The notes: generated by a model from the sequence alone, not told the origin. A DNA stretch of 64,000 nucleotides from Minisyncoccota bacterium (GCA_041664465.1 JBAYKP010000001.1:68204-132203), one strand, 5' to 3'; shown: positions 3,579 to 62,578, counted from the first letter of the stretch. A program made the numbers and translations.

Positions 3579-3579
3579 A

Positions 3580-12677: not shown

Positions 12678-12722
12678 TATTTTAATTCTTAATTCTTAAT
12701 TCTTAATTCTTAATTCTTAATT
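12678..12722. repeat. tandem heptamer TTAATTC x6 immediately upstream of the frr start codon
   Basis: ttaattcttaattcttaattcttaattcttaattcttaatta. The same array is found at 3580-3622. Confidence 0.6.
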
Positions 12723-38910: not shown

Positions 38911-38911
38911 A

Positions 38912-38936
38912 CCTAGCAAGAACGGTTCTTGCTAGG
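38912..38936. repeat. REP palindrome cctagcaagaac-G-gttcttgctagg (12-bp arms), followed by two half-copies that overlap the 3' end of the RAYT gene
   Basis: Perfect palindrome. Half-repeats ttcttgctagg run to ~38975. Confidence 0.75.
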
Positions 38937-38955
38937 TTCTTGCTAGGTTTTCTTG

Positions 38956-39636
38956 CTAGGTTTGAGGTTCTAGGGTTTCAAAATAATTTTCAACAAATTC
39001 CTTAAAAGATTGTTTATTATGAAAATAATCTGGAAAATTATCTTTATTTAAAATACTATTTTCTATTCTATCATCTCCTGTATAATCTTGATAACTAGAA
39101 TATTTATATGATTCTAAAAAGTTCTTCATATCTACTGATGACTTATTCAAATTATCTTCCCACTCAGGAAATTCTATCTCTAATGAATTAAGATGAATAT
39201 ATGCAAATAATTGTCTTAAATAATTATCATCATTCCCTACTAATTTAGCTTTAAATAATCCTCCAAATAATGCTCCTTTTCTTTGATATTTTATATTAAA
39301 AAACATTGAATATCCTACTCCTAATTTTCTCATAAATTTAGTTATACCACCATCAACATCTTGTCTAACTAATATGTGAAAGTGATTGTTCATCAAACAC
39401 CACGCACCAATAGAGATAATACTCTTTTCTTTTTTGATTTTTAAAATATCATAGTATTTTTTATTTTGATTATTTACAAGATTATCAATCCGAAAAGATT
39501 CTTCAGAGTTTGCGAGATAAAGAAGCATAATAAATCTTTCATAATCTCCTTTGATTTTAAAAATTACTCTCTTATCAATACCCCTATTATAAATATGGTA
39601 ATATTCTCCTGTTATAAATGGATCTTTCCTTAACAT
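38956..39636 (-). CDS. IS200/IS605-family Y1 (HUH) transposase, REP-associated tyrosine transposase (RAYT)-like
   Basis: GEYYHIYNRG..., LMNNHFHILV (HUH motif) and ...QLFAYIHLNSL (candidate catalytic Tyr). It is flanked on both sides by the same 25-bp REP. Confidence 0.6.
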   Translation of the reverse strand: MLRKDPFITGEYYHIYNRGIDKRVIFKIKGDYERFIMLLYLANSEESFRIDNLVNNQNKKYYDILKIKKEKSIISIGAWCLMNNHFHILVRQDVDGGITKFMRKLGVGYSMFFNIKYQRKGALFGGLFKAKLVGNDDNYLRQLFAYIHLNSLEIEFPEWEDNLNKSSVDMKNFLESYKYSSYQDYTGDDRIENSILNKDNFPDYFHNKQSFKEFVENYFETLEPQT

Positions 39637-39662: not shown

Positions 39663-39687
39663 ACCTAGCAAGAACGGTTCTTGCTAG
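39663..39687. repeat. REP palindrome copy (same orientation as 38912) plus a half-copy
   Basis: cctagcaagaacggttcttgctagg, followed by tagttcttgctagg. Confidence 0.75.
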
Positions 39688-39716
39688 GTAGTTCTTGCTA
39701 GGTTCTATAAAATATA

Positions 39717-40295: not shown

Positions 40296-40350
40296 GTAAT
40301 ATTGCGAATAGTCTCACGAAATATCAAAAGGTGATATCGTGATATCGAAA

Positions 40351-40375
40351 CCTAGCAAGAACCGTTCTTGCTAGG
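40351..40375. repeat. REP palindrome copy in inverted orientation (central C)
   Basis: cctagcaagaac-C-gttcttgctagg, preceded by the direct repeat gtgatatcgtgatatcg. Confidence 0.7.
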
Positions 40376-40404
40376 TGGAGGAGGTGTGATATACTCTGTG
40401 GTAT

Positions 40405-41280
40405 ATGAATACAGAGAAAAAGAATCTAAAATTTATATTCTTTGGGACACCCTATGCCGCAAGTAAGACATTGCAAATACTTAAAGAAAGAGGATATATA
40501 CCAGAAGTGATTGTGACCTCTCCCGATGCAAAAAAGGGGCGTGGCTTGGAAATGCACGAAACGTCAGTATCAACTTGGGCTAAGGAGAATAATATAAAAT
40601 GCTTAAAGCCTGAAAAAATTGATGAAGAATTTATAAATAATATTTTCCCTAGCCACAAGTCCGACTTGTGGCCGATACTTTCTGTAGTTGTGGCTTATGG
40701 GAAAATACTCCCAGAAATACTAATCAAAAAGCCTGAATTTGGAACTATAAATGTTCATTATTCCCTTCTTCCAAAATACAGAGGTGCATCTCCTCTTGAG
40801 GCTTGCCTATTAAATGGAGATGAAGTTACTGGGGTAAGTATTCAGCAGATGGAATATAAATTAGACAGTGGGCAAATATTACGAGAAGAGAAAATAGATA
40901 TAGGTATAAATGATACTAAAGAAGAATTACGTGAGACTCTCATAAGTCTAGGAGGAAATGTCTTATGTGATATTTTACCCCAAATAGTAAACCAAGAAAT
41001 TAAATCAAAAGCTCAAGATGAGAATCTAGCGACCTTCTGTAAGAAAATTAAAAAAGAAGATGGGGAAATCAATCTAGAAGAAAATGCTAAAGAGAATTGG
41101 AATAAATACAGAGCTTACTCTGGCTGGCCTGGGGTATTCTTCTTTGCAACTAAACATAATAAAAAGATAAGGTGCAAAATAACCAAAGCTAAATTAGAAA
41201 ATAATCAATTTATTATTGAAAAAATAATACCGGAAAGTAAAAAGGAGATAGATTATGAATCTTTCTTAAAACAAAATTAG
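40405..41280 (+). CDS. fmt: methionyl-tRNA formyltransferase
   Basis: KFIFFGTPYAA, VVVAYGKILP, INVHYSLLPKYRGASPL. It carries a 21-bp palindrome (40653-40673) in frame (...PSHKSDLWPI...). Confidence 0.85.
   Translation: MNTEKKNLKFIFFGTPYAASKTLQILKERGYIPEVIVTSPDAKKGRGLEMHETSVSTWAKENNIKCLKPEKIDEEFINNIFPSHKSDLWPILSVVVAYGKILPEILIKKPEFGTINVHYSLLPKYRGASPLEACLLNGDEVTGVSIQQMEYKLDSGQILREEKIDIGINDTKEELRETLISLGGNVLCDILPQIVNQEIKSKAQDENLATFCKKIKKEDGEINLEENAKENWNKYRAYSGWPGVFFFATKHNKKIRCKITKAKLENNQFIIEKIIPESKKEIDYESFLKQN
40653..40673. repeat. palindrome gccacaagtc-c-gacttgtggc in frame inside fmt
   Basis: 10-bp arms. A near-identical element (gccataagtccgacttatggc) lies inside rnhB. Confidence 0.65.
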
Positions 41281-44775: not shown

Positions 44776-45978
44776 ATGAAAAAATACATAAATATTTCCA
44801 TCTCTATATTGTTTTCTCTTTCAATGATTTTACTAGCAAGTACAAATGTCTTAGCTGCTACTGGAATACCTAAGTCCGTAAAAAATGTTGATGATTCAAA
44901 TATAGTTTACCCCATTGTAGAGCTTGGTAGTTGCAAAGATAAAGCTGACTGTGCAAGCTTCTGCTCTAAGAGTGAGAACATGGTAGCCTGTATGAATTTC
45001 GCAGAGAAACAAGGACTCCTTTCGGGGGAGGATTTAAGAATCTCCAAGATTGTAGCTGAAAAAATTTCTAAAGGTCAAACTCCAGGACAATGTAAAGATC
45101 AAGATAGCTGTGAGAAATTCTGTAAAGATAAAGTTGAGAATATAGACGCTTGTATCTCTTTCGCAGAAGAGTTGAATATCTTACCAGCGAGTGAGCTTGC
45201 TCAAGCAAAGAATATAGCAAAAGCTTTGAAAGAAGGAGCAAAGCTACCAGGGCAATGCAAAACGAAAGATGACTGTGAAAATTATTGTGAAGATGGTGCT
45301 CATATAGATGAATGTCTATCTTTTGCAGAAGCTGCAAATATCCTCCCCCCAGATGAATTAAAAGATGCCAAGAAAATGGCTTCATTCTTGAAAAATGGCG
45401 AAACACCTGGAAAATGTAAAGACAAGAAAGATTGCGAAAATTATTGTAATGATTCCGCCAATGGAGATGAATGTCTAAATTTTGCTAAAAAGGCAGGACT
45501 CATATCTAAAGAAGAAGAGGATATGATGAATAATGGTGGAGAAAAGATCAAGCAAGCCTTGGAGAATTTACCGCCAGAAGTTAAGGGCGAAGTCGAGGCT
45601 TGTCTAAATAGCAAGATAGGAGCCGATAAATTAGATAAAGTGATGAATAAAGAAGAAAATCTTACCAAGAATCAAGGCGAAAGTCTTCAAAGTTGCTTTG
45701 CTGGAATAGAAGCTAAAATGAAAGCCATTATGATGGAGAAGGCCGGTAGTCAAGGTAAGGGCGAAGGATTCGGAGCTCCTGGTGATAGAGGCCCAAGTGG
45801 TAATATAGATATGGGGCAACGTGGACCAAGCGAAGATCAGATTAAAAATATGATGCCAAAGAATCTACCAGAATCTGCTTCCCTTCCACAAGTAGACTGT
45901 GCAAGCTTCAAAGCTGTTCCCTCTTGTAGCTATGTACCCGAAGGAGTCAGAGATCAGTGTGAGAAATGCAAAGAATAA
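44776..45978 (+). CDS. secreted protein with four tandem ~45-aa four-Cys modules plus a Gly/Pro C-terminal region
   Basis: Signal peptide, then the module G(Q/K)CK.K.DCE.(F/Y)C.D...(ID/GD)(A/E)C(I/L)(S/N)FAE....L....EL..AK repeated four times. Confidence 0.5.
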   Translation: MKKYINISISILFSLSMILLASTNVLAATGIPKSVKNVDDSNIVYPIVELGSCKDKADCASFCSKSENMVACMNFAEKQGLLSGEDLRISKIVAEKISKGQTPGQCKDQDSCEKFCKDKVENIDACISFAEELNILPASELAQAKNIAKALKEGAKLPGQCKTKDDCENYCEDGAHIDECLSFAEAANILPPDELKDAKKMASFLKNGETPGKCKDKKDCENYCNDSANGDECLNFAKKAGLISKEEEDMMNNGGEKIKQALENLPPEVKGEVEACLNSKIGADKLDKVMNKEENLTKNQGESLQSCFAGIEAKMKAIMMEKAGSQGKGEGFGAPGDRGPSGNIDMGQRGPSEDQIKNMMPKNLPESASLPQVDCASFKAVPSCSYVPEGVRDQCEKCKE

Positions 45979-49746: not shown

Positions 49747-50256
49747 TTGATATCATATGATATAATAAAAATTATGGGAAAGATAAATATCTACATTGAT
49801 GGAAATAATTTATATCGCTCGGCCAAAGAATTAGGATTTGAAATTGATTATAAAAAGTTCCGTGTATGGTTATCTCAAAAATATAATACAAAAAACATAT
49901 TTCTTTTTATTGGGTATTTAGAAAATAGAAAAGATTTTTATAATTATCTTAAAAATTGTGGTTTTGATTTAATATTTAAAGAAGCAGTTCTTCATGAAGG
50001 TAATATTAAGGGAAATTGCGATGCCGAACTTGTATTAAAATCGGTTGATGATTATCATCTAAAGAATTTTGATAAATTTATACTAATTTCTAATGATGGA
50101 GATTTCGGTTGTCTTATTGAATTCTTAATAAATAAAAATTGTTTTGACATTATATTATCTCCTGATAGAAAGAAGTGTTCTATTTTATTGAGAAATAAAA
50201 CAAATAAGATTTTATATTTAAACGAAATTTATAAAAAGTTCTCAAAAAAGAAATAA
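49747..50256 (+). CDS. NYN-domain (PIN-like) putative ribonuclease
   Basis: INIYIDGNNLY, GNCDAEL, ILISNDGDF: the acidic residues of the LabA/NYN fold. Confidence 0.6.
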   Translation: MISYDIIKIMGKINIYIDGNNLYRSAKELGFEIDYKKFRVWLSQKYNTKNIFLFIGYLENRKDFYNYLKNCGFDLIFKEAVLHEGNIKGNCDAELVLKSVDDYHLKNFDKFILISNDGDFGCLIEFLINKNCFDIILSPDRKKCSILLRNKTNKILYLNEIYKKFSKKK

Positions 50257-50414
50257 TATAGTCTATATAAAAAGAAAAAGCTCCCGGTATGGGCGCACCC
50301 ATACAGGGATCTCTTTCATAATGATATCAGTATTATATCATATTGCCGAAAGTATGCAAGTATTTTATTTAGGTTCGAACTTCTACCAAAGCAGGGAAAA
50401 TAGATCTTAAATTA

Positions 50415-50438
50415 CCTAACAAGAACCGTTCTTGCTAT
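50415..50438. repeat. degenerate REP copy (cctaacaagaac-c-gttcttgctat)
   Basis: Two mismatches relative to the 38912 REP. It is intergenic, next to the R-M/MazG block. Confidence 0.5.
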
Positions 50439-50444
50439 ATTTAA

Positions 50445-50840
50445 TTAGTTTTGATTATTATTTTCTAACTTTTTTATCTTTTTGAATTTATACCACCCAA
50501 TAATTACTGGTAAGACAAAAGTTAAAATATAATAAATATAAACATCGATTTTATAATAACCAGTTACTTTAAGTACTTTAATCATGAAAATATAATCCAA
50601 AGCCACTGCCATAATAGCCCAAATAACCCCTAATCCGATATAACACCCAAATTCTTCTCTTTTAATTTTCTTAAGCAACACCCAAAGAGTAAACGCTATT
50701 CCGAAAGGCATAATGCTCCAGCCTATAAATTCTTTTGGCACAAAAGCAAAAAATACAAATCCTAAAACATAGCCAAAAAGCCAAACAATAAATCCCCAAA
50801 AAACAGTATTAAGAAAAATTTTCCCTTTATTTGTTTCCAT
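50445..50840 (-). CDS. hypothetical four-TM membrane protein
   Basis: Hydrophobic profile only. Confidence 0.35.
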   Translation of the reverse strand: METNKGKIFLNTVFWGFIVWLFGYVLGFVFFAFVPKEFIGWSIMPFGIAFTLWVLLKKIKREEFGCYIGLGVIWAIMAVALDYIFMIKVLKVTGYYKIDVYIYYILTFVLPVIIGWYKFKKIKKLENNNQN

Positions 50841-50843
50841 AAA

Positions 50844-51092
50844 TTAATATCTATATTTATAAGGCTTCACCGTTCCTTTCTTCCCTGAATAAGGATTATA
50901 ATTCCCTTTTGTAGAATAGTTATCTAACTTGGTTTTATTTGGAGAAGTTCGGTAAGAAGGTGCTACATATTTCATAGTGGAAGGTTTAAAATAACCTTTT
51001 ACTTTAACAGTCTTGGCTTCTACAGATGAGACAGATACAAACAACCCTAATAATAGAAACCCTAGAATACTTAAAACTGCAAGTTTTTTCAT
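50844..51092 (-). CDS. small secreted K/Y-rich protein
   Basis: Signal peptide MKKLAVLSILGFLLLGLFVSVSSVEA, then a Lys/Tyr-rich 55-aa tail. Confidence 0.35.
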   Translation of the reverse strand: MKKLAVLSILGFLLLGLFVSVSSVEAKTVKVKGYFKPSTMKYVAPSYRTSPNKTKLDNYSTKGNYNPYSGKKGTVKPYKYRY

Positions 51093-51152
51093 ACAATATT
51101 TGAAGTGATTATTAATATCCTAATCATATGCCTATTTATGGATAAATCAAGG

Positions 51153-51866
51153 CTAAATACTTTTTATTGAATGAATAACCTTATCCATAAAATTATCATA
51201 GTCATTTAATATAATTCCATCTCCAAAAGTCACGAGTGATTTTTTTGATAATTTTAATTCAATACTATTTTTAATACTTAAATAATATTTCTTATATTGA
51301 GATTTTTTTATTATTTTATCTTTTATTAGATCCGGAAATTTAATCATAAATATTAATGTTTTTGTGGGCGTATGGAAAAATACATCTTCATCGTCTTGTG
51401 ATAATTTAAAATACTTATGGATATTATTGTCCGTAATTTTTTCCCACTTTGTGATCATACCCTTATTGTTATAATAAGGTAATTCTTCTGGTAAAACTAA
51501 AATCTGATAATATTTTTTCTTATTAGCTCTTATATTTGCTGTTTCTCCTAACATATTTTCAAAATAATTATTTGAATTTTGAGAATAATTATTCATGACA
51601 AATTTAACAGCAACTCCGGCAAGATCTTTTTTGTCTTTAAAAATAGTAATATCTACTGTCTTGTCCATATATCTACCTTCCATTTTAGCTTCTTTCCCCT
51701 TCCCCAAACCAAGGGAACTGACAGTGTATTTATTCCCAAGTCTTTTTTCTAAATCTTTCGCAATTGCCCCATGAAGTATTTTTAACTTTTCATTACTTCG
51801 TGAATGTGTTTGTAAAAATTTTACAAATGATTGACTTACTATTTTCAAAAATTTTTGATTATTCAT
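51153..51866 (-). CDS. putative type II restriction endonuclease (partner of the adjacent methyltransferase)
   Basis: It lies immediately downstream of, and is co-oriented with, the N6A MTase, 23 nt apart. The candidate PD-(D/E)xK-like segment MDKTVDITIFKDKK gives no family-level match. Confidence 0.35.
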   Translation of the reverse strand: MNNQKFLKIVSQSFVKFLQTHSRSNEKLKILHGAIAKDLEKRLGNKYTVSSLGLGKGKEAKMEGRYMDKTVDITIFKDKKDLAGVAVKFVMNNYSQNSNNYFENMLGETANIRANKKKYYQILVLPEELPYYNNKGMITKWEKITDNNIHKYFKLSQDDEDVFFHTPTKTLIFMIKFPDLIKDKIIKKSQYKKYYLSIKNSIELKLSKKSLVTFGDGIILNDYDNFMDKVIHSIKSI

Positions 51867-51889
51867 TTTTATGATTATTATATTAATTA

Positions 51890-53356
51890 TTAAAATAAAG
51901 ATGGCTGAACTTTATAAAATTGAGGATGAACAAAATCTTTCATGAAACTTTTAGCATATGATTTATATCCACCACGATAACTTTTGGAAATTGAATTTAT
52001 ATACTCTTCCATTGAATTTGAATTTAACACTTCGCAAAGGGCATATAGATCAACATCTTTATTTTTTGGTTTTATACAATAACCAGAATAAAAACTTGTT
52101 TTTTCGTCTTCTATTACAAAAAAGTGAGGAGTGAGATTCATTGTACTAGTTATTATTTTTTTACCAAAACCAGTTTTTAAACTTTGGTTTCTTCCAAAAG
52201 AATAAAATTCTTCATAATTTTTACCACCACCCTTGTCTCTTTTTTCTAAAATATCACGATTATATAAAAAATATTTATATGCTTCTGGATATTTATTTAT
52301 AAAAATATTTTTAGGAATTATTCTTTCATTTTTATACGGAAAAATCAAAAAAAGATTCTGATTTTTCCCTTTATAAGTAGATGCTTTAATAATTGGAACA
52401 CACAAATTTCTCTCTATTTTAAAATTATCTTTATAAAAATATATTTTATCTATTTTTTCAGGAGAAAATATATAAACATCATCTTTTAATGTAGCAATTC
52501 CATAATGGATGTCCGCTATTTCTTGAAGTGTTGAATATTTTTTATTTAATTTATCTATTTTTTTAGAATATTCTTCACTTAAAAATTGCCATGGTTTTAA
52601 CTTATCTTCTATATTTTTCAATATCTTTTTATAAACAATATCATTAAAATTATTTTTATAGTTCTCTGTATATAAAAAATTATGGGTATTTTCTTTATTT
52701 AAAAATGTTATGGCGGTGTAAGTTGTTGCGTCTTTAAATACCTGAAAGTGATCAAAATTAATGATTTTTGTTAAATGTGGATAAATTAAATTTCTTAAAT
52801 TTCTCCCAGCACTAGAGTGAAAATGAGAGTTAGGTGTAATAAAAGAAAGTTTCCCGTTTTCTGTTAATAAATTCAGAGACTGCTCAAAAAAACAAAAATA
52901 TAAATCAATGGAGCCATTAGATGCTGATATAAACTTCTTTTGTATTTCATCTCTTTTTTCATTAAGATTTTGTATTCTCACATATGGAGGATTACCTATT
53001 ATAAAATTAAATTTCTCTTTAAAATCATGAAAACAAAAATCATTAATAATTGAGTTATATTGGGTAATTTCTTCATTAGATAATTCTTGTAAATTTTGTT
53101 TTGTTTTGTTTATATATTCTTCTGAAATGTCAATAAAATAAAGATTGTTTTCAATTACATCTTTTATTGATTTTCCAGATATTTTAGAAAATTTCTTAAC
53201 TATTGGAATAGAAAAAGCACCTTCTCCACATCCAGAATCTAATATTTTTTCTGATCCTGTTATTTTTGTATCTTTAAATACTTCATCAATCATAAAATCA
53301 ACTATCCATTCCGGAGTAAAAACAACGCCATTTTCTTTTTTAGATTTAACATTCAT
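51890..53356 (-). CDS. N6-adenine DNA methyltransferase (gamma-class; TaqI/Eco57I-like)
   Basis: GVVFTPEWIVDFM (motif X), LDSGCGEGAF (motif I FxGxG) and IIGNPPY (motif IV) in gamma-class order. A C-terminal target-recognition region. Confidence 0.8.
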   Translation of the reverse strand: MNVKSKKENGVVFTPEWIVDFMIDEVFKDTKITGSEKILDSGCGEGAFSIPIVKKFSKISGKSIKDVIENNLYFIDISEEYINKTKQNLQELSNEEITQYNSIINDFCFHDFKEKFNFIIGNPPYVRIQNLNEKRDEIQKKFISASNGSIDLYFCFFEQSLNLLTENGKLSFITPNSHFHSSAGRNLRNLIYPHLTKIINFDHFQVFKDATTYTAITFLNKENTHNFLYTENYKNNFNDIVYKKILKNIEDKLKPWQFLSEEYSKKIDKLNKKYSTLQEIADIHYGIATLKDDVYIFSPEKIDKIYFYKDNFKIERNLCVPIIKASTYKGKNQNLFLIFPYKNERIIPKNIFINKYPEAYKYFLYNRDILEKRDKGGGKNYEEFYSFGRNQSLKTGFGKKIITSTMNLTPHFFVIEDEKTSFYSGYCIKPKNKDVDLYALCEVLNSNSMEEYINSISKSYRGGYKSYAKSFMKDFVHPQFYKVQPSLF

Positions 53357-53398
53357 ATTAATATATTATATCATTTTATACATACAAACTATAATTTT

Positions 53399-53785
53399 TT
53401 ATAGTTTATTATATTTCGTATGCTTTCCTTTGGCTTTCTTTACTGGGTATTTTTCTTCGTTTTTCTTCATTTTTTTATCTAATGCGTCTATAATATCTAT
53501 CTTCAAATCATGGCTCATAAGTAAAACCCAATAGAAGACGTCTGCCAGCTCTTCCCCAATATGCTCTTTGTGTGACTTTATATATTCTTCAATTTCTTCT
53601 TTTGATTTCCATTGAAAATGCTCCAGAACTTCAGAAGCCTCAAGTGAAAGAGAAATTGCTAAGTCTTTTGCATTATGAAATTGCTTCCATTTTCTAGCAT
53701 TTCGGAAAGCTAGTATCTTCTGTATTGATTCACTCAAATCTCCTTTCATAATTTGAAGTATAGCTCTATTTCCCTTTTGAGACAA
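53399..53785 (-). CDS. MazG-like nucleotide pyrophosphohydrolase
   Basis: FRNARKWKQFHNAKDLAISLSLEASEVLEHFQW and EELADVFYWVL. This is the EExxE/D metal-binding helix pattern of the MazG/NTP-PPase family. Confidence 0.65.
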   Translation of the reverse strand: MSQKGNRAILQIMKGDLSESIQKILAFRNARKWKQFHNAKDLAISLSLEASEVLEHFQWKSKEEIEEYIKSHKEHIGEELADVFYWVLLMSHDLKIDIIDALDKKMKKNEEKYPVKKAKGKHTKYNKL

Positions 53786-53882
53786 TATGGGGGATTTTTG
53801 GGATAAGTATTAAAGTAATATACCTTTTGCTTTTTTAGTCTATTTTTGCTACTATATTCTAGTCTATTATTAATAGACGTAT

Positions 53883-53954
53883 TCCGTGGTAGCTCAGCGG
53901 TAGAGCGGTCGCCTGTTAAGCGATTGGTCGTAGGTTCGATCCCTACCCACGGAG
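53883..53954 (+). tRNA. tRNA-Asn (anticodon GTT)
   Basis: TCCGTGGTAGCTCAGCGGTAGAGCGGTCGCCTGTTAAGCGATTGGTCGTAGGTTCGATCCCTACCCACGGAG. Cloverleaf with anticodon loop CTGTTAA. The antisense ORF 53746-53961 (VGIEPTT) is a tRNA artefact. Confidence 0.85.
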
Positions 53955-54054
53955 CAGACAAATTAACTCATTATTTTTAATGAGTTTGTTGTAGATTGAC
54001 AGCTTTGCTATTTAAGGGTAATGTGAAGAAAAATAACTTAAAAATGAAATAATC

Positions 54055-54330: not shown

Positions 54331-54918
54331 ATGAAAAAATTAGTAATTTACAGATGTTTACCTTTCAAGGATTGGCATCAACCATTTGATAAAGATGGTA
54401 GCAGGTGGCTTATTGGTGGATACAGGCAAGAATGCAGTTGTCCATACGGAAGCCATTGGGATCCAAGATTTTTAGATTACAAAGATCCACTAAACTTAAA
54501 AGAAATTCTCTCCATGCAAGAAGGAATAAAACTTTTAACTTTTTACTCTTGGAAAGACGAAGAATATGTGGCTTTTCATACATTTAAAAATGTTGAATTT
54601 TATTCTGATTTTATGCGTATACTGTTTAAGGAAAAAGTGGATGTTTGTGAGTACGGAGGAACTGGAGAGCAGCTTACGGGAACCAGGCTTATTGCGGTAA
54701 TTGAAGATGCAGGTGAAATCAACGCTTTTGGAAAAATTGGAGGCATTGATGAGTTTATTGATGAGCTGTCAAAATTAACTGGCATTTCAATCCAGGAGAT
54801 TAAACAACAAATTAATGAATTAGATGAAACACCCATTCCATCAGAACTAAAAATTTCAATAGAAGAAATTACTGAGGAAGCTAAGAGGTCGGGCAATCTT
54901 GCTCCAATTTTTGGGTAA
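54331..54918 (+). CDS. hypothetical protein
   Basis: 195-aa ORF containing CSCPYGSHWDP. No recognised domain. Confidence 0.35.
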   Translation: MKKLVIYRCLPFKDWHQPFDKDGSRWLIGGYRQECSCPYGSHWDPRFLDYKDPLNLKEILSMQEGIKLLTFYSWKDEEYVAFHTFKNVEFYSDFMRILFKEKVDVCEYGGTGEQLTGTRLIAVIEDAGEINAFGKIGGIDEFIDELSKLTGISIQEIKQQINELDETPIPSELKISIEEITEEAKRSGNLAPIFG

Positions 54919-55037
54919 ATTAAACTAAACCGCTAGTTGTCGGGTAGTAGTAGAAACTGCTATTCACACTAGCGGTTTTCTATTTATCTAATTAAGGTTC
55001 CAATTCTGTCCCTCCCCACCTCCCCACCTTCCCCACT

Positions 55038-55070
55038 CAAAACCCCCTAGCTTTGCTTCGGGGGTTTTGT
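55038..55070. terminator. bidirectional rho-independent terminator
   Basis: aaaaccccc-tagctttgcttc-gggggtttt. Confidence 0.65.
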
Positions 55071-55094: not shown

Positions 55095-55796
55095 TTAGTG
55101 TACAACTACTGTATGGGCATTATTGGCGGCTGATTTCTTTGCTACCATACGAGCAACTACTATGATTGCTAATACCAAGAGTATGAACATAATCCATTGG
55201 AATAGTGAACTTGGTAAGAAGCTACCAGAACCTTTCAAGGACAAAGCTGTGACTCCATTGGTGTCTACTTGCTGTGTTGCATAAGGTTGATAAGCACTTG
55301 CTACCATCATATTGTTGGAGTAACCTCTGTTGGCATCGAAATTTACATACTGACCAGTATTACCTTTGTTGCCTGTGGCTGTTGGAATTGTAGTAGTAGT
55401 CGTATTTGCATTTATGACAGAAGCTCCTTGTGTATTACCAGTGGTAACATATCTGACAGTTTGCTGTTGGGGTGCATATTGGACGACTTGCTGTTGCGGA
55501 ACGTACTGAACAGTTTGCTGTTGAGGTACGTATTGTATCTGAGTTGTAGTTGGCTGTGCATATACATAAGTATAAGGTTGCCTTACATAATTGCTATTAA
55601 TAGAATTATTATAATAAGAAGGAGTGCTAAGGTCTGTAACACTTGTGCTATAGCCATTATTATAATATCCATCACTATAATAAACAGCGGCAGAAGCATC
55701 ATGATACGAAACGGCAAGAATAGCAAAGATTCCGAGAGCTATTAAGTTTTTTAAAATATTCTTTTTCATAAGCCATATTATATCATATAAGTACAT
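55095..55796 (-). CDS. secreted Y/Q/T-rich repeat protein with a C-terminal TM anchor
   Basis: Signal peptide (likely start MKKNILKNL at 55769), QYVPQQQTV x3 repeats, T-rich segments, and a C-terminal TM helix FQWIMFILLVLAIIVVARMVAKK. Confidence 0.45.
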   Translation of the reverse strand: MYLYDIIWLMKKNILKNLIALGIFAILAVSYHDASAAVYYSDGYYNNGYSTSVTDLSTPSYYNNSINSNYVRQPYTYVYAQPTTTQIQYVPQQQTVQYVPQQQVVQYAPQQQTVRYVTTGNTQGASVINANTTTTTIPTATGNKGNTGQYVNFDANRGYSNNMMVASAYQPYATQQVDTNGVTALSLKGSGSFLPSSLFQWIMFILLVLAIIVVARMVAKKSAANNAHTVVVH

Positions 55797-55883: not shown

Positions 55884-58538
55884 ATGATAACGAAATTGAA
55901 AAATAACAAAAAGAGAGTTCGCCTAGAGGACTATATCTCCCCTGTTAGCTACAATCTGACCTTACATCCTGACCTTTTGTCTTCTACTTTTTCGGGACGC
56001 GAAATTATAAAAATAAAAGTGGATAAAGAAATAAAACAAATCACTTTGCATAGTAAAGATATAGATATAGAAACGGTAGAGCACATAGCAGATGGCACGC
56101 AACAATTTGCCCATAAAATCACATACGATGCAAAGAGAGAAACTGCAACTTTCTATTTTAAAAATAAAATAAAAAAAGGGCAGAGCGAGCTCTCAATTAT
56201 TTTCAGTGGTATCATCAATGATAATTTGAGAGGATTTTATAAAAGTAGATACATACTAGATGGTGAAGAGAAATTCATAGCCACGACCCAGTTCGAAGCA
56301 ACAGATGCTCGCCGTGCTTTCCCTTGCTTTGATGAGCCAGCACACAAAGCAATATTTGAAGTATCGCTCGTAATACCTGAGAATCACACAGCCATATCAA
56401 ATACTTTACCTATTGAAATAAAGGAGCACAGTCTCGGATACAACATAGTATCTTTCTCTCCCACGCCGATAATGTCTACTTACCTACTCGCATTTATTAT
56501 CGGCGAGTTTGAATATGTGGAGGGATATACCCGTCCGAACGGGTCATCCGGGCAGGCTAAGGACAAGGTTCTTGTCCGTGTATTCACAACTTCTGGTAAA
56601 AAGCATCAAGCCAAATTTGCATTGGAAGTCGCTATCAAATCACTTGAATTTTATAATGAATATTTTGATATACCCTATCCACTTCCTACCTTAGACCTCA
56701 TCGCTATCCCCGACTTCGAAAGTGCGGCAATGGAGAACTGGGGGGCCATCACTTTCCGCGAGACGGCTATACTCGTTGATGATCTACATACTTCCCTTTC
56801 AAACAAACAATGGGCAGCGATAGTGATAGCCCACGAATTGGCACATCAGTGGTTCGGCAATCTAGTGACGATGCATTGGTGGACAGACCTCTGGCTCAAT
56901 GAAGGCTTTGCTTCATATATGGAAAATTTATGTACGGATCACCTCTTTCCAGACTGGCATGTATGGGATTTAAATATTGCCGATAGATATGCTGTCGCTC
57001 TCAAGCTTGATTCACTTGCCACTTCACATCCAATAGAAGTAGTCGTCCACCACCCAGATGAAATAAGTGAAATCTTTGATATGGTCTCTTATGCTAAAGG
57101 CTCTGCGATGATAAAAATGCTGGCAGAATATCTAGGGCACGACAAATTCCGCGATGGGCTACGTCACTATTTGAAAAAGCACAGTTATGGTAATACCAAT
57201 ACCGTAGATCTCTGGAATGCTTTTGAGAAAGTAAGCAAAAAGAAAGTAATAGAAATAATGAATTCTTGGACGAAAGAAACCGGCTATCCACTCGTGACAA
57301 TTTCCCCTAGGCAAGGCCTAGGGGAAATGTGGGAAATCAGACAAGAGCGATTTTTCTCAAGTAGAGTGAAAGCTTCTGAATATAAAAATTCAAAAAGTAA
57401 AAAACACTTGTGGCAAATACCTGTGAAATACGAAAGCCTGTCGGATAATAGAGAAGTTATGGATATGCTCATGACTAAAAAATCTGCTCCAATGATTGGC
57501 ACCTCTATCGGCAAAGTAAACAAAGAAGAAGGAACATTTATACGAGTCTGCTATGATCAAGAGACTCTTAAAAAATTGAAAGAAGAAATACAAAATGGGA
57601 AACTTTCTGTGAAAGATAGACTGGGAGTTATTCGTGATATGTTCGCTCTGGCTGAAGGTGGATACATCAGTACGATAGAAGTACTTGAATTCTCTCTCGT
57701 ATATAAAAATGAAACAGAGTTCATCGTCTGGTCTGAAATAGCGAGTGGTATAAATAGAGTGGCAAATATATTGGGCGAAGAAAAATTTAAAAATCTATAC
57801 GATAAATACGTACTCACATTATTTAGTCACATCGCAAAAGAATTGGGGTGGGGAGAAACCCCCTCGCCCTCTGGGCACTCCCCCTTAACAGGGGGAGACA
57901 AACACTCACAAGTTTTCTTGCGGAGTCTAGCACTCTCTATGTCGGCACATTATGGAGACAAGAAAGTAATTACCGAAGCCAAAAAACTCTTTAAAAATAA
58001 GGCTAAAATGCCAATAAGAGCTGACATCCGCGGAGTAGTCTACAACATTGTGGCTGCAAGTGGCGGGGAGAAGGAATGGAAACTTTTCGAAAAGTTATAC
58101 AAAGAAGAAGAATTTCATGAAGAGAAGGATAGATATGCTAGGGCATTAACTTCATTTAAAAATAAAGATCTACTTCGGAAAACTTTAAACTTTGCTATAT
58201 CAAGAGACGTTCGTGTTCAAGACGCTCCATTCATAATAGTGGCCGTCTGGCAGAATAGTATAGGTAAAGACATTACTTGGAAGTTTATAAAAAGTAATTG
58301 GAAAATAATTGTGAAAAAGTTTGGCGAGGGTGGACATTTCCTCTCCCGAGTCCTCTCTCCTCTCGGTACTCATACAAAAGAAAAAGATTACAAAGACATT
58401 AAAAATTTCTTTGCTAAAAATGTCGCCCCTGGCTCTGCCCGCACCCTCCTCCAATCCTACGAACGCATCGAGTCCAACATCGCTTGGCTCAAAGATGACA
58501 AAGCCTCTATCAAATCTTGGCTAACAAAAAATTACTAG
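55884..58538 (+). CDS. pepN: aminopeptidase N (M1 family)
   Basis: GAMENWG, the HELAHQWFGNLVTMHWW zincin motif, and LWLNEGFASY. It carries in-frame palindromic inserts at 57304-57324 and 57845-57897. Confidence 0.9.
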   Translation: MITKLKNNKKRVRLEDYISPVSYNLTLHPDLLSSTFSGREIIKIKVDKEIKQITLHSKDIDIETVEHIADGTQQFAHKITYDAKRETATFYFKNKIKKGQSELSIIFSGIINDNLRGFYKSRYILDGEEKFIATTQFEATDARRAFPCFDEPAHKAIFEVSLVIPENHTAISNTLPIEIKEHSLGYNIVSFSPTPIMSTYLLAFIIGEFEYVEGYTRPNGSSGQAKDKVLVRVFTTSGKKHQAKFALEVAIKSLEFYNEYFDIPYPLPTLDLIAIPDFESAAMENWGAITFRETAILVDDLHTSLSNKQWAAIVIAHELAHQWFGNLVTMHWWTDLWLNEGFASYMENLCTDHLFPDWHVWDLNIADRYAVALKLDSLATSHPIEVVVHHPDEISEIFDMVSYAKGSAMIKMLAEYLGHDKFRDGLRHYLKKHSYGNTNTVDLWNAFEKVSKKKVIEIMNSWTKETGYPLVTISPRQGLGEMWEIRQERFFSSRVKASEYKNSKSKKHLWQIPVKYESLSDNREVMDMLMTKKSAPMIGTSIGKVNKEEGTFIRVCYDQETLKKLKEEIQNGKLSVKDRLGVIRDMFALAEGGYISTIEVLEFSLVYKNETEFIVWSEIASGINRVANILGEEKFKNLYDKYVLTLFSHIAKELGWGETPSPSGHSPLTGGDKHSQVFLRSLALSMSAHYGDKKVITEAKKLFKNKAKMPIRADIRGVVYNIVAASGGEKEWKLFEKLYKEEEFHEEKDRYARALTSFKNKDLLRKTLNFAISRDVRVQDAPFIIVAVWQNSIGKDITWKFIKSNWKIIVKKFGEGGHFLSRVLSPLGTHTKEKDYKDIKNFFAKNVAPGSARTLLQSYERIESNIAWLKDDKASIKSWLTKNY
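57304..57324. repeat. palindrome cccctaggc-aag-gcctagggg in frame in pepN (the same element is found in mnmA at 3915-3935)
   Basis: Identical 21-mer to the mnmA copy. Here it encodes SPRQGLGEM. Confidence 0.7.
57845..57897. repeat. GC-rich composite palindromic element in frame in pepN (same family as mnmA 4368-4450)
   Basis: ggggtggggagaaaccccctcgccctctgggcactccccc-ttaaca-gggggag shares ccccctcgccct.cgggcactccccctt..cagggggag with the mnmA element. It encodes GWGETPSPSGHSPLTGGD. Confidence 0.7.
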
Positions 58539-58570: not shown

Positions 58571-59296
58571 TTAGTGTATAAATGACTTGCGATGGATTGG
58601 GGTCTGACCGTGAGTTCTGATGGCAGAATAGTGAGCGCGGGTACCATAACCCATATGCTTATTGAAACCGTATTCGGGGTAATCCAAAGCATACTTTGTC
58701 ATAATCCTATCTCGCGAAACTTTCGCCACAATGGATGCCAAAGAAATAACCGGATGAAGCTCATCCCCTCTTATAATCGTCTCCTGATTTATGTACTCTA
58801 CTGGGGCATGAAGTCCACCATCGAGAAAAATCTTGAACGAAGAGAGCGAAACAGAATCTTCCAAATTTTTATCGGCGTCGGAGCCCTTTAGGGTAAGCCC
58901 TGAAAAATTTGGAAGATTCTGTGAAGCGACTTTATCAAGTGACTGATTCAAAGCTTTCTGAATACATTTTGCAATTCCAAATTTATCAATATTCTCGGGG
59001 GAAACAAAAGACACAGCATAGTCGCAAAGACCTTCGGTCTTTGCGACTTTCAAATATTCAAACCACTCTTCCCTTTGCTTCTTACTAAGCTTCTTCGAAT
59101 CTTTTAATTTTGGTAATTTTACATAGGACGGTCCTATGTCTTTTTTGCCATAAGTCCGACTTATGGCTGATTCAATAAAATTATTATCCTTAATTAAAAA
59201 AGCACAAACAGCCACTGGCCCTGCCAAAGGGCCCCGACCAACCTCATCTATGCCAATTATGTATTTTGTGGTGTCTAAAGCTCCCATATAGAACAA
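58571..59296 (-). CDS. rnhB: ribonuclease HII
   Basis: IIGIDEVGRGPLAGPVAVCA (DEVGRG catalytic motif). It carries two in-frame palindromes at 59121-59167. Confidence 0.85.
   Translation of the reverse strand: MFYMGALDTTKYIIGIDEVGRGPLAGPVAVCAFLIKDNNFIESAISRTYGKKDIGPSYVKLPKLKDSKKLSKKQREEWFEYLKVAKTEGLCDYAVSFVSPENIDKFGIAKCIQKALNQSLDKVASQNLPNFSGLTLKGSDADKNLEDSVSLSSFKIFLDGGLHAPVEYINQETIIRGDELHPVISLASIVAKVSRDRIMTKYALDYPEYGFNKHMGYGTRAHYSAIRTHGQTPIHRKSFIH
59121..59167. repeat. two palindromes (acataggac-g-gtcctatgt and gccataagtc-c-gacttatggc) in frame in rnhB
   Basis: They are related to the mnmA element ctacataggaccgtcctatgtag and the fmt element gccacaagtccgacttgtggc. They encode ...RTYGKKDIGPSYVKLPK.... 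Confidence 0.7.
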
Positions 59297-59325: not shown

Positions 59326-62300
59326 ATGGACCCAAAGCCTGAATTAAACGCCAACTTCATACATCTGCATACCCACTCTCATTATTCTCTCTTAGACGGG
59401 CTTTCGAAGATTCCAGATATGGTCAAAACTGCCAAGAAAAATGGGATGAATGCCCTGGCTATTACTGACCACGGGAATATGTATGGAGCCATAGAACTCT
59501 ACAAAGAAGCTCATAAAGCGGGCATTAAGCCTATCATTGGAGTGGAAGCCTACATCGCCTTCCATGGAAGAAAAGACAAAGAACCCGGAGTAGACAACAG
59601 ACGATACCATCTAACACTTTTGGCCAAGAATAAACAAGGTTACAAGAATCTAATGCATCTAGTCTCTATTGCGAATATGGAAGGCTATTATTACAAACCT
59701 CGTATGGACAAAGAAATTCTAAGAGAATTTCACGATGGAATCATTTGCCTTTCTGGTTGTATGGGTAGTGAGCTCTCTCAAGCAGTCCTCGCCAACAACA
59801 ATGAAAAAGCCGAAGATCTCATAAAAGAGCATCAAGAAATTTTCGGTCTTGAAAATTATTTCCTTGAAGTTCATTCTCATCCTCACGTAGAAAATGATAA
59901 AAAATTAAGAGATGGAATTATTGCTCTTGGAAAGAAATTTAATATTAAAATTGTCGCTGGTCAAGATTCTCACTACCTTTGTGTGGATGATTACAAAGCC
60001 CATCACACTCTCCTTGCAGTTAATACTGGAACTGATGGTGGTAAAGAAGGAACTGGTTTTGAATTCCCTGAAGATGACTTCTCTCTTATAGATGAGAAAA
60101 CTGCTTTGAAATATTTCGCAGACTGCAAGGAAGCCGTGACCAATACGAAATTTGTGACTGACTTGTGCGAGTCATACGACCTTGAGCTAGGGAAAGCTTT
60201 CTTTCCTGACTTCCCTATTCCAGAAGGTCAAACTGCCGATGAAGTCCTCCGCGCACTTGCTTATAAAGGTTTCGAAACGAGAAAGCTTGAAAAAACGCCT
60301 ATTTATATAGATAGATTGGAATATGAATTAAAGCTTATAAAGCAGAAAGGATACCCCGCATACTTCCTCGTCGTCTCTGACTTACTTCAATTCTCAAGAG
60401 ATAATGATATATACACAAACATCCGAGGATCCGTCGCCGGATCTCTCACGACTTATCTCACAGGTATTACAAAAGTTGATCCTATACTTTACAAATTGCC
60501 ATTTGAAAGATTCCTAAATCCAGAACGTCCATCTCTGCCTGATATAGATATGGACTACGCTGATAATCGTCGCGATGAAGTGATCGCTTATGCCAAGAGG
60601 AAATATGGCGAAGACAAGGTCGCTCAGATCGGTACTTTCGGAACGATGATGGCGAAAGGCTCCGTGCGCGACGTTGCTCGCGCACTCGGCCACCCTTATG
60701 TCGTTGGTGATAGAATTTCAAGTATGATACCTCTTGGCTCTCAAGGAATGCCAATGACTATAGATCATGCTATGAAGATAGTCCCTGAATTGAAAACTGC
60801 TTACAAAGAAGAAAAAGATACAAAAGAAATTATAGACTTAGCGAAAAAGATGGAAGGATGTGTCCGCCATATTTCCGTCCACGCGGCGGGAGTCGTCATG
60901 TCCCCTCGTCCTCTCTATGAATTTACTCCTATTCAATATGACCCAAAGGGTGGAAATATCATCACTCAATATGATATGTATAGTATTGAGGATGCCGGAC
61001 TGCCGAAATTTGATTTCCTTGGTATTAGAAATTTAGCCATCTTGGCAGAAGCAGTAAGATTAGTGAAAATAATACATAAAATAGATATAGATATAGATAC
61101 GATAGATCTAAATGATAAGAAAACTTTTGAAATGCTTTCCCGAGGAGAGACTATGGGATTATTCCAACTCAATGGTTCTGGAATGACAAGATACTTGAAA
61201 GAATTAAAACCTTCTACTATTCATGATATCAATGCGATGGTAGCTTTATATCGTCCTGGACCGATGGAAATGATCCCTGAATATATCAAACGCAAACACA
61301 ATCCAAAAGCTATCACTTACCTTGATCCTAGATTGAAAGATATCCTAAGTATGTCTTATGGAATCATTACTTACCAAGATGACGTTTTAATGACGGCTAT
61401 CAATCTGGGTGGATATTCTTGGCTTGAAGCCGACAAACTTCGTAAAGCGATGGGTAAGAAAATTCCTGAAGTCATGGAAGCCGAAAGAGAGAAGCTTCTA
61501 GCTGGTCTCGTCAAACACGGAATGAGTGATAAAAAGGCGGAAGAGATATGGACATTAATTGAGCCATTTGCAGCCTATGGATTCGGGAAGGCTCACGCGG
61601 CAAGCTACGGACTAGTAGCATATCAGACAGCCTATATGAAAGCCAATTACCCTGTGGAATATATGTCGGCAATTATGACTTCTGAATCAGGTGATATAGA
61701 AAAAGTAGCAGAAATAATTCATGAATGTGAGAAAATGCAAATCAAAGTCCTTCCTCCAAATATCAATGAAAGTTATGGTGGATTCACTGTAATAAAAGGC
61801 AGTGACCATACGACTGACCGAACTATTCGCTTTGGATTTTATAATATTAAAAATTTGGGAGTAGATATCGCCGACTCTATCATAGAAGAAAGGAAGAAGA
61901 ATGGTCACTTTAAATCTTTGGCTGATTTCTTTGAAAGAATTAATCACAAGAATTTAAATAAAAAGTCAGTGGAAGCTCTCGCCAAGTGTGGAGCAATGGA
62001 CGACTTTGTCACTCATAGAAATATGGTAATGGGTAATCTGGAGAAGCTTATAGCTTTCAACAAGGAAGCCAAAGGATCGGGAGCACAGGATTCTCTCTTT
62101 GGAAGTATTGGTGGAATAGAAGTGAAACTTTCACTTGATGAACAAATAGAAGCCACTTTGCAAGAGAAACTAACTTGGGAGAAAGATCTGCTAGGGCTCT
62201 ATGTCTCAGGGCATCCACTGGATAATTATAAAGACAAGATAGATAAATTTGGCACATTGATTAAAAAAGTAAAAGAAGAATTAAAGGTGAATATGCCAGT

Positions 62301-62535
62301 CACTATCGCGGCTATCATAGATGATATCCGAATAGTTACTACCAAGAATAATAACAGAATGGCTTTCATAAAAATTTCTGACTATACAGGAAGTATAGAT
62401 GCGGTAGTCTTCTCGAAGCTTTTCGAAACCCATAAAGATATCCTAATAAAAGATACGATCATCGCCCTCACAGGCAAAGTCACAGAGAGAAATGGTGAGA
62501 AAAGTATAATGATAGATAATTTTAAGAAGATTTAA
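59326..62535 (+). CDS. dnaE: DNA polymerase III alpha subunit
   Basis: FIHLHTHSHYSLLDG (PHP domain), the palm/fingers motifs and a C-terminal OB fold. 1069 aa. Confidence 0.95.
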   Translation: MDPKPELNANFIHLHTHSHYSLLDGLSKIPDMVKTAKKNGMNALAITDHGNMYGAIELYKEAHKAGIKPIIGVEAYIAFHGRKDKEPGVDNRRYHLTLLAKNKQGYKNLMHLVSIANMEGYYYKPRMDKEILREFHDGIICLSGCMGSELSQAVLANNNEKAEDLIKEHQEIFGLENYFLEVHSHPHVENDKKLRDGIIALGKKFNIKIVAGQDSHYLCVDDYKAHHTLLAVNTGTDGGKEGTGFEFPEDDFSLIDEKTALKYFADCKEAVTNTKFVTDLCESYDLELGKAFFPDFPIPEGQTADEVLRALAYKGFETRKLEKTPIYIDRLEYELKLIKQKGYPAYFLVVSDLLQFSRDNDIYTNIRGSVAGSLTTYLTGITKVDPILYKLPFERFLNPERPSLPDIDMDYADNRRDEVIAYAKRKYGEDKVAQIGTFGTMMAKGSVRDVARALGHPYVVGDRISSMIPLGSQGMPMTIDHAMKIVPELKTAYKEEKDTKEIIDLAKKMEGCVRHISVHAAGVVMSPRPLYEFTPIQYDPKGGNIITQYDMYSIEDAGLPKFDFLGIRNLAILAEAVRLVKIIHKIDIDIDTIDLNDKKTFEMLSRGETMGLFQLNGSGMTRYLKELKPSTIHDINAMVALYRPGPMEMIPEYIKRKHNPKAITYLDPRLKDILSMSYGIITYQDDVLMTAINLGGYSWLEADKLRKAMGKKIPEVMEAEREKLLAGLVKHGMSDKKAEEIWTLIEPFAAYGFGKAHAASYGLVAYQTAYMKANYPVEYMSAIMTSESGDIEKVAEIIHECEKMQIKVLPPNINESYGGFTVIKGSDHTTDRTIRFGFYNIKNLGVDIADSIIEERKKNGHFKSLADFFERINHKNLNKKSVEALAKCGAMDDFVTHRNMVMGNLEKLIAFNKEAKGSGAQDSLFGSIGGIEVKLSLDEQIEATLQEKLTWEKDLLGLYVSGHPLDNYKDKIDKFGTLIKKVKEELKVNMPVTIAAIIDDIRIVTTKNNNRMAFIKISDYTGSIDAVVFSKLFETHKDILIKDTIIALTGKVTERNGEKSIMIDNFKKI

Positions 62536-62537
62536 AT

Positions 62538-62574
62538 AAAATAGCCCCGCCAACTTCGTTGGCGGGGCTATTTT
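62538..62574. terminator. bidirectional rho-independent terminator after dnaE
   Basis: aaatagccccgccaac-ttcg-ttggcggggctatttt. Confidence 0.7.
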
Positions 62575-62578
62575 ATTA

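Follow-up and report, generated by a model that had tools for sequence, protein, structure and literature searches.

We describe here two palindromic sequences shared by the genes pepN and mnmA in a 64,000-nt stretch of DNA from a Minisyncoccota bacterium (GCA_041664465.1 JBAYKP010000001.1:68204-132203), which as a whole is called the window in the following. We consider it probable (about 0.7) that these sequences are repeats of a Patescibacteria system akin to the repetitive extragenic palindromes (REPs), and the hairpin-forming REP doublets termed REPINs, that accompany REP-associated tyrosine transposases (RAYTs), and that they are tolerated in frame in protein loops. An initial annotation of the window had taken them for inserts from two families and had argued, from their presence in unrelated genes on opposite strands, for active or recent spreading over convergent loop evolution. 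The genes are indeed unrelated, with mnmA on the minus and pepN on the plus strand, and spreading is supported by the occurrence of the family in many unrelated genes and intergenic sites, by its position at the flanks of RAYT genes, by homogenization within genomes, and by in-frame presence and absence among orthologs.

The window organism belongs to Candidatus Paceibacterota (Patescibacteria, or candidate phyla radiation [CPR]), and close pepN homologs are all from Patescibacteria; one protein of a Candidatus Paceibacterota metagenome-assembled genome is 100% identical to the pepN product. The pepN open reading frame (ORF 55884-58538, plus strand) encodes an M1 aminopeptidase nearest to puromycin-sensitive aminopeptidase (E ~1e-201), and the product of mnmA (ORF 3631-4863, minus strand) matched MnmA structures at E ~1e-67. 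For comparison, loci from related genomes, read as 8-kb pieces for the F1 copy counts, were sampled and designated by L-numbers; the DNA compared came to ~1.4 Mb in all. The sequences shared by the two genes, and a variant doublet in a third gene, are as follows.

57300-57328, plus strand: palindrome of family F1 in pepN, ATTTCCCCTAGGC-AAG-GCCTAGGGGAAAT, with a perfect 13-bp stem and a 3-nt loop, translated as I-S-P-R-Q-G-L-G-E-M
3913-3938, minus strand: F1 palindrome in mnmA, the same 26-mer on the plus strand, with the minus-strand reading S-P-R-P-C-L-G-E
57847-57898, plus strand: composite element C in pepN, single copy, with the hairpins GGGG-N-CCCC, GCCC-TCT-GGGC, and CTCCCCCT-TAAC-AGGGGGAG, encoding (E)TPSPSGHSPLTGG
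4368-4451, minus strand: REPIN-like inverted doublet of composite C in mnmA, 84 nt or 28 codons encoding SPCQGGVPEGRGGQTPPARSHLPLAGEE, whose right half (4400-4451) matches pepN
5353-5413, minus strand: REPIN-like inverted doublet of an F1 variant, TTCCCATAGGTCAGACCTAGGG ... CCCCTAGGTCTGACCTATGGGAA, inside a gene for an S-adenosylmethionine (SAM)-dependent methyltransferase

The exact 21-mer reported for pepN and mnmA, CCCCTAGGCAAGGCCTAGGGG, occurs exactly twice in the window (3915-3935 and 57304-57324) and was never matched in 100 dinucleotide-preserving shuffles; the identity reaches 26 nt, TTCCCCTAGGCAAGGCCTAGGGGAAA at 3913-3938 being the same as 57302-57327 (repeat finder, family D6). The pepN copy has a predicted DNA folding energy of -14 kcal/mol (z = -5.4), and its variant with the AAG loop is CCCCTAGGC-AAG-GCCTAGGGG. 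Only one F1 frame is free of stops in either orientation, the other two containing TAG, and the reading S-P-R-x-x-L-G-E in two unrelated genes on opposite strands follows from this single open frame. F1 and the composite have the same orientation on the plus strand, and hence opposite orientations relative to pepN and mnmA. The codons AGG, CTA, and GGG found in the elements are atypical for a genome of ~35% GC, and the GC-rich hairpins stand out against the window GC of the same value. The F1 site in mnmA, NTITV|SPRxxLGE, is also filled in mnmA of L018, L039, L056, and L064 and corresponds to a 6-residue gap in the comparison with the Streptococcus pneumoniae MnmA structure. The F1-variant doublet at 5353-5413 folds as a single 23-bp hairpin (-25.6 kcal/mol, z = -11.4), and its variant also occupies the pepN F1 site in L075.

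The relatedness of the two composites, likewise claimed in the initial annotation, was confirmed: over 52 nt, 4400-4451 shares 83% identity with 57847-57898 (repeat finder, D12), and a degenerate 28-nt core matches only these places in mnmA and pepN within the window, with 0 expected. The similarity is not confined to low-complexity G/C runs, as the aligned part includes the mixed sequence TCGCCCTNNGGGCAC. The mnmA composite folds at -29.6 kcal/mol (z = -4.6) and lies in a segment that remains unaligned with MnmA structures, with ~34 residues here versus ~8 there. The loop containing it, between ATGHYA and KDQSYFL (window 4330-4480), appears as an insertion hot spot, each of the orthologs in L018, L039, and L056 having its own insert of 30 to 50 residues. 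No match to the C element was found among PLSDB plasmids by distant blastn, and neither the F1 nor the C pattern was found in viral contigs. By analogy, from its hairpin composite structure, its inverted doublet, and its in-frame gain and loss, the C element probably belongs to the same kind of REP system.

Hairpins are abundant in the window beyond these copies. Perfect hairpins with stems of at least 8 bp number 38, versus 3 to 15 in shuffles, and many are intragenic. Against 40 synonymous-codon shuffles, a null that preserves each protein and its codon usage, coding sequences hold 8 stems of at least 10 bp (mean 1.0, maximum 4) and 5 of at least 11 bp (mean 0.2). Both families of the initial annotation are real, yet the window holds at least five (F1, F2, F3, C, and D4), none of them confined to a single site, and at least three sets besides those two are common to unrelated genes, namely, F2, F3, and the F1-variant doublet. 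All window copies of F1, F2, F3, and C are intragenic; those of D4 are intergenic.

A copy census over one genome each of 185,579 species (596 Gb) was performed with the F1 family pattern TTCCCCTAGG-N5-CCTAGGGGAA, which specifies 20 bases. It returned 71 loci (78 sites), all in Patescibacteria, with ~1 match expected by chance; the hosts are Nomura-, Zambryski-, Yonath-, and Vogelbacteria, Paceibacterota, RAAC4_OD1, and metagenome-assembled genomes labeled Saccharibacteria. The copies are of two kinds. Intergenic ones are often bounded by an A-run and a T-run, and their flanks prolong the palindrome with locus-specific sequence; the others lie within long ORFs, where the frame is invariably S-P-R-x-x-L-G-E. 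Orthologous sites are filled in several genera, including mnmA NTITV|SPRxxLGE, pepN PLVT[IV]|SPRxxLGE, and sites in two more gene families. Both inner pairs of the central pentamer are complementary in 36 of the 78 copies, versus 4.9 expected. The pentamer class was the same in 77% of within-genome pairs (54/70) versus 13.5% of pairs between genomes, a difference reached in none of 10,000 permutations.

A link to transposases was provided by a recurrent host ORF of ~230 amino acids, represented by L029:3911-4606, which contains one F1 copy and has a second one 18 nt upstream of the ATG. Its product matched the NCBIfam model for REP-associated tyrosine transposases, NF047646, at E = 4.8e-12 (46 bits) and Pfam Y1_Tnp at E = 3e-4. 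Searching with this protein by tblastn revealed 17 further homologs in the sampled loci, including one in the window, for a total of 18. The window member and its surroundings, together with the intragenic palindromes of four other members, are as follows.

38956-39636, minus strand: RAYT-like Y1/HUH transposase gene, 226 amino acids, motifs LMNNHFH and AYIHLN
38910-38963, unstranded: D4 palindrome immediately adjoining the RAYT gene downstream, AACCTAGCAAGAAC-G-GTTCTTGCTAGGTT plus two extra half copies
39663-39703, unstranded: D4 palindrome upstream of the RAYT gene, plus one half copy, ~27 nt before the start codon and followed by a TATAAT box
40350-40376, unstranded: dispersed intergenic D4 copy
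50412-50440, unstranded: dispersed intergenic D4 copy, 79% identical to the reference copy
L029:4177-4201, L050:7515-7539, L005:4887-4911, and L013:4011-4035: intragenic RAYT palindromes at ~+266 of the gene

The window protein matched NF047646 at E = 1.5e-5 (25 bits), has PF01797 on record, and is named "transposase" at NCBI. Its family comprises at least 2,934 clusters; Parcubacteria-type bacteria are the source of all members with a taxon-specific source name, and the annotations read "transposase" or "hypothetical protein." In the alignment of the 18 sequences, the HUH motif (NHFH) and the tyrosine motif (Y-x-H-L-N) are invariant. A profile search against the PDB placed Escherichia coli TnpA_REP (4ER8) at the top with both motifs aligned, a match that is not significant (E = 0.31), and a single-sequence search against the same database gave no meaningful match.

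At all loci but one (17 of 18), the RAYT gene is accompanied upstream and/or downstream by the same palindrome. The upstream copy lies 40 to 70 nt before the start codon and is followed by a TATAAT box, and the downstream copy overlaps the stop codon or lies just behind it. In one RAYT clade, a third palindrome at ~+266, directly after the HUH motif (NHFHxxLI|SPRxxLGE), adds 5 to 15 residues missing in the other clade; besides the four loci listed, it is present in L100, L023, L021, L032, L042, and L087. The flanking palindrome varies by locus. It is of the CCCCTAGG type (F1 family) in twelve loci, and the others are CCCAAAGGCC (L100a), ATGCACTAGG (L100b and L083), ATGTACCAGTC (L082), CCCCTGACCC (L042), and ACCTAGCAAGAAC (window). 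In genomes sampled for a RAYT locus as well as for other copies, the dispersed palindromes were usually of the variant that flanks the RAYT. L013 has, in another genome, a RAYT with exactly the C-AAG-G variant of F1, and several of the variants at the pepN F1 site, as well as palindromes of the RNase HII gene and mnmA, are families that flank RAYTs in other genomes. Judged by its arrangement, the segment 38910-39703 of the window appears to be a complete REPtron, with a RAYT-like gene and ACCTAGCAAGAACGGTTCTTGCTAGGT plus extra half copies on both sides.

Gain and loss were followed in pepN, for which 30 orthologs were aligned and the DNA of the closest was compared; A, B, and C denote a GC-rich hairpin insert, the F1 site, and the composite. 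In the AlphaFold2 (AF2) model of the protein (mean predicted local distance difference test [pLDDT] score, 78), all three sites are predicted to lie in loops. The predicted loop of site A is of low confidence and stands between secondary-structure elements, site B would form the beta-hairpin turn between strands E468-475 and E483-490, and the site C loop (pLDDT <50) is placed between helices H636-654 and H674-689. The closest relative, L073, is syntenic and 86% identical in nucleotides over 8.4 kb; among the in-frame coding indels that set the window apart from it, C (30 nt, 57857) and an F2 palindrome in the RNase HII gene (27 nt, 59121) are the two largest. The composite in pepN is a clean 30-nt in-frame insertion (57857-57886) versus L073; its site is filled in some orthologs, including some at just 66 to 68% identity, and empty in others at 82 to 83%. 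In all, C and two further palindromes differ by in-frame presence or absence among orthologs that are ~80% identical.

Site B behaves differently. Every ortholog above ~66% identity has a palindrome there, with arms that differ and yet are always perfectly complementary. Nine variants were found, each a perfect stem of 11 to 15 bp with changes paired on both arms and no mismatch; the arms include CCCCTAGGC, CGCCTAGGTC, CCCAAAGGA, CCCATAGGTC, CCCACATGTC, and CACATAGGTC. L074 and L077 have a decayed palindrome at this site and distant orthologs have none; compared with its closest relative, the window has just 9 nt more here. Since every close ortholog has some palindrome there, the 21-mer in pepN is, at the DNA level, no simple insertion. 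The description of the elements as inserts therefore holds for the composite but not for the 21-mer. For the 21-mer sites, which are old and filled in several genera, recent insertion does not apply, and replacement or homogenization of resident sites accounts better for them.

Further palindromes were recorded in pepN, mnmA, and other genes of the window.

56529-56558, plus strand: GC-rich hairpin insert A in pepN, 27 nt, encoding RPNGSSGQA
3864-3890, minus strand: F2 palindrome in mnmA, TACTACATAGGAC-C-GTCCTATGTAGTA, encoding LHRTVLCS
59121-59147, minus strand: F2 palindrome in the RNase HII gene, ACATAGGACGGTCCTATGT plus 8 nt, a 27-nt in-frame insertion versus L073
3889-3909, minus strand: palindrome in mnmA, TATACCAGT-TGG-ACTGGTATA, encoding YTSPTGI
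3726-3742, minus strand: palindrome in mnmA, CACAGGTC-A-GACCTGTG, within the peptide TGLTCEITF
59147-59167, minus strand: F3 palindrome in the RNase HII gene, GCCATAAGTC-C-GACTTATGGC
40652-40672, plus strand: F3 palindrome in the methionyl-tRNA formyltransferase gene (fmt), GCCACAAGTC-C-GACTTGTGGC, encoding HKSDLW
59020-59048, minus strand: palindrome in the RNase HII gene, AGTCGCAAAGACC-TTC-GGTCTTTGCGACT, 13-bp stem

Insert A was found in the window and L073 only, of the 30 aligned orthologs, and is a clean 27-nt insertion versus L072, L074, and L075; its fold is weak (z = -1.9). Six palindromic segments were counted in mnmA. The F2 palindrome there is kept in mnmA of L039, L056, and L064, from which the neighboring palindrome at 3889-3909 is missing; a sequence related to the latter, ATGTACCAGTC-N-GACTGGTACAT, is found next to the RAYT gene of L082 and within the RNase HII gene of L075. 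For the palindrome at 3726-3742, the form TCACAGGTCAGACCTGTGA is perfect in mnmA of both L039 and L064 and is found in L015 as well. The unit shared by the F2 copies is ACATAGGAC-N-GTCCTATGT (mnmA 3864-3890 and RNase HII gene 59121-59139), and that shared by the F3 copies is GCCAYAAGTC-C-GACTTRTGGC (fmt 40652-40672 and RNase HII gene 59147-59167). The RNase HII loop formed by residues 41 to 59 contains 0, 1, or 2 palindromes depending on the relative. At its F3 place, orthologs have the compensated variants GCCACAAGTC-G-GACTTGTGGC (L075) and CCCACATGTC-T-GACATGTGGG (L073), and at the place of the 13-bp stem, the L075 ortholog reads AGTCGCAAAAGCC-TTC-GGCTTTTGCGACT, with both arms changed and the pairing retained. 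A hairpin in dnaE (60664-60685), encoding VRDVARAL, was left out of the element count, as this stretch probably corresponds to a conserved DnaE motif. GC-rich coding hairpins that may be further candidates are located in the genes for PriA (15978-16012, double, CCGCC..GGCGG and TCCGCC..GGCGGA) and YbeY (17975-18006, 13-bp stem).

How a RAYT system might have produced this pattern can be outlined as follows. A RAYT of the HUH/Y1 type would recognize a single-stranded hairpin and cut and rejoin the DNA, and this reaction could copy, move, or replace elements without target-site duplication. In gene-dense genomes, many surviving copies would be intragenic, and only in-frame, stop-free insertions in tolerant surface loops would persist; the very high gene density of Patescibacteria genomes would explain why so many copies lie within coding sequence. 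We infer that a RAYT catalyzes the spread of the palindromes and that the window genome may encode an F1-type RAYT beyond the window, or may have lost one not long ago. Old sites occupied by perfect palindromes that are homogenized within each genome suggest replacement or conversion at resident hairpins, to which templated correction from arm to arm may contribute. A bolder version, which we put forward tentatively and think rather doubtful, is that the hairpins are permanent at fixed sites of essential genes and are repeatedly overwritten, by conversion and not by new insertion, with the variant of the current RAYT of the genome; the loops would then coevolve with a domesticated transposase, and the RAYT promoter and intragenic copies would form an autoregulatory circuit.

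Several results weigh against the assignment to a RAYT system. The L029 protein scored under the Pfam gathering score, and both RAYT-like proteins that were scored fell under the curated NF047646 cutoff of 80 bits. The RAYT of the window is flanked by D4, not by F1 or C, and no F1-type RAYT was seen within the 64 kb, which make up about the right half of a 133-kb contig. The C element was found only at pepN site C of six loci, in addition to this mnmA, and never beside a RAYT in the 1.4 Mb sampled. A GTAG or CGTC tag was looked for, and no conserved tetranucleotide was present outside the stems in the 18 RAYT loci and 78 F1 copies; CTAG occurs inside many stems. F1 copy numbers are low, with two exact copies in 64 kb and at most 5 exact-arm copies in the sampled parts of any genome. 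Finally, that the same orthologous sites are filled in different genera is unforeseen by simple random transposition.

The compensated changes call for a comparison with intrastrand template switching (quasi-palindrome correction), by which palindromes would be made and kept perfect in place without a transposase, a change in one arm being copied to the other, and similarity between genes would stem from a limited sequence space or from occasional switches between loci. The nine perfect site B variants with paired changes, and likewise those in the RNase HII gene, are in line with such a process, as are the large excess of perfect palindromes over those with one mismatch (193 versus 33), the many intergenic flanks that extend the palindrome with locus-specific sequence, and the combination of old sites with sequences that are not old. 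What template switching leaves unexplained is that identical variants, including the loop, recur across unrelated genes and genomes, that copies within a genome have one variant in common, and that Y1 transposase genes are bordered by the same palindromes at 17 of 18 loci. As the sole cause we regard it as unlikely; it could operate alongside a RAYT and give the arms their perfection. Slightly less likely again, in our judgment, is that the hairpins are selected mRNA or DNA structures, which might stabilize transcripts, pause translation at domain boundaries, terminate transcription, or bind a host protein, and to which the RAYT association would be secondary. Such a role would agree with sites conserved across genera with covariation, with intergenic members between A-runs and T-runs that resemble bidirectional terminators, and with the RAYT upstream copy directly before a TATAAT box, which suggests regulatory use. 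However, close relatives with intact genes have decayed (site B of L074 and L077) or empty sites (A and C), and the many unrelated host genes and positions argue against a single function. Moreover, no Rfam family matched the hairpins, a search of the whole window at gathering thresholds returning four tRNAs only, and the stems are perfect Watson-Crick helices with very few G-T pairs, unlike typical RNA structures, although this comparison is underpowered (4 G-T versus 1 A-C, among only 8 informative cases).

Motifs resembling DNA uptake signals, enriched by biased uptake and recombination in competent CPR bacteria in the manner of the inverted pairs of the Neisseria DNA uptake sequence (DUS), would account for genome-specific "dialects" of one motif, for terminator-like intergenic hairpins next to coding copies in a preferred frame, and, through allelic recombination, for replacement at orthologous sites. 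We nevertheless hold this to be highly improbable. Uptake sequences typically occur at ~one per kb, a density far above that found here, where several unrelated families per genome have 2 to 4 copies each in 64 kb; nearly all copies are full palindromes, which uptake does not need, and the tight flanking of Y1 transposase genes is unaccounted for. Convergence of GC-rich loop codons by chance or low complexity, which has nothing in its favor beyond the G/C runs in the composite, was ruled out for practical purposes by the 26/26 identity, the shuffles, and the excess over synonymous shuffles.

Some further features of the window were noted in passing. A 7-nt unit, TAATTCT, forms arrays of about six copies at minus-strand start codons (3578-3620 and 12682-12722), the first abutting the start of ORF 1794-3578 and the second beginning 9 nt upstream of ORF 12137-12673. 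A low-GC stretch (~50000-54000, 26% GC) between the D4 palindrome at 50412-50440 and tRNA-Asn (53883-53955) contains a gene for an Eco57I/TaqI-like DNA methyltransferase (51890-53356) and may be an island. Behind dnaE, a terminator-like hairpin of 19 to 20 bp, AATAAAATAGCCCCGCC...GGCGGGGCTATTTTATT, is present in the window (62535-62577) and in relatives (L072:18286-18325 and L073:7898-7938), in which loop and inner-stem bases vary and pairing is retained. Cys-containing segments are encoded by a 48-nt tandem duplication (25435-25529; 2 copies, 80% matches) and by a pair of ~80-nt direct repeats, 159 nt apart, inside ORF 44776-45978 (45246-45485). A C-rich repeat, CCTCCCCA, occurs in 3 intergenic copies (55005-55038) between ORFs 54331-54918 and 55095-55796.

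Most of what is known of REP/RAYT systems comes from Proteobacteria, and REPs are defined as extragenic. Our literature search found no paper joining RAYT, REP, or IS200 with Patescibacteria or Parcubacteria. If the palindromes are RAYT-borne, the REP/RAYT logic would extend to Patescibacteria in a form in which the elements lie largely within coding sequence, even inside the transposase gene, and would account for part of the unexplained extra loops and length variation in CPR housekeeping proteins. Annotators and structure predictors should then be aware that such loops may be repeat derived. Old sites combined with homogenization within genomes would, in addition, offer a natural test of the coevolution of hairpin and transposase.

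The features in common with REP/REPIN-RAYT systems are dispersed GC-rich palindromes of 20 to 40 nt that occur singly and as inverted doublets, hairpin families specific to a genome, and a specific pairing of RAYT and palindrome, exemplified by L100 with two RAYTs and two families. The doublets here are 5353-5413 and 4368-4451, and most of the copies seen are singles. In both, a Y1/HUH gene is flanked by cognate palindromes (D4 in the window, F1 in 12 loci of relatives), the arrangement described as a REPtron, in which the RAYT gene is flanked by its cognate REPs (PMC2817692, PMC3116915, PMC3333891, PMC3733652). Described REP superfamilies are characterized by a GTAG (or CGTC) tag, and intragenic REPs are a documented minority elsewhere (PMC3733652). 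The palindromes reported here differ in having no such tag and long perfect stems of 11 to 15 bp, and in that a large share of the copies are intragenic and translated, one of them inside RAYT coding sequence; the copy numbers seen (64 kb plus 8-kb pieces) are low, whereas known systems have tens to hundreds. If the link is confirmed, tagless, perfect stems would broaden the known range of RAYT substrates.

Among translated repeats, the Rickettsia palindromic element (RPE) RPE-1, from the work of Ogata et al. in 2000, is said to be the classic case of in-frame palindromic inserts. RPE-1 is 100 to 150 bp long. Intragenic REPs that are translated have been documented in Opitutus terrae, Thauera, and Xanthomonas, and so have RPE-4/6 of Rickettsia conorii; genes for replication and repair are frequent hosts (PMC3733652). 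As in those cases, in-frame palindromes are found here in genes of known function and contribute loop residues, ~7 to 30 amino acids, as singles or dimers, the hosts being MnmA, the M1 peptidase, RNase HII, Fmt, and an rRNA-type methyltransferase. The Rickettsia repeats, however, are CGTC tagged and lack a dedicated transposase; the elements here are 21 to 84 nt long, have no CGTC, are linked to RAYT-like genes at least in the case of F1, and are unrelated in sequence. Uptake sequences (DUS, or uptake signal sequences [USS]) consist of one 9- to 12-mer at ~one per kb for which palindromy is optional, unlike the several full-palindrome families described here. With IS200/IS605 insertion sequences, finally, the system would share the transposase superfamily PF01797, subterminal hairpins on single-stranded DNA, and the absence of target duplication. 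In an IS200/IS605 element, the left end differs from the right, and the complete unit moves together with its gene and is found in several identical copies; here, both flanks bear the same palindrome, and the hairpins are dispersed rather than the gene. Transposition without target duplication, as in IS200/IS605, fits the clean in-frame gain and loss observed here.

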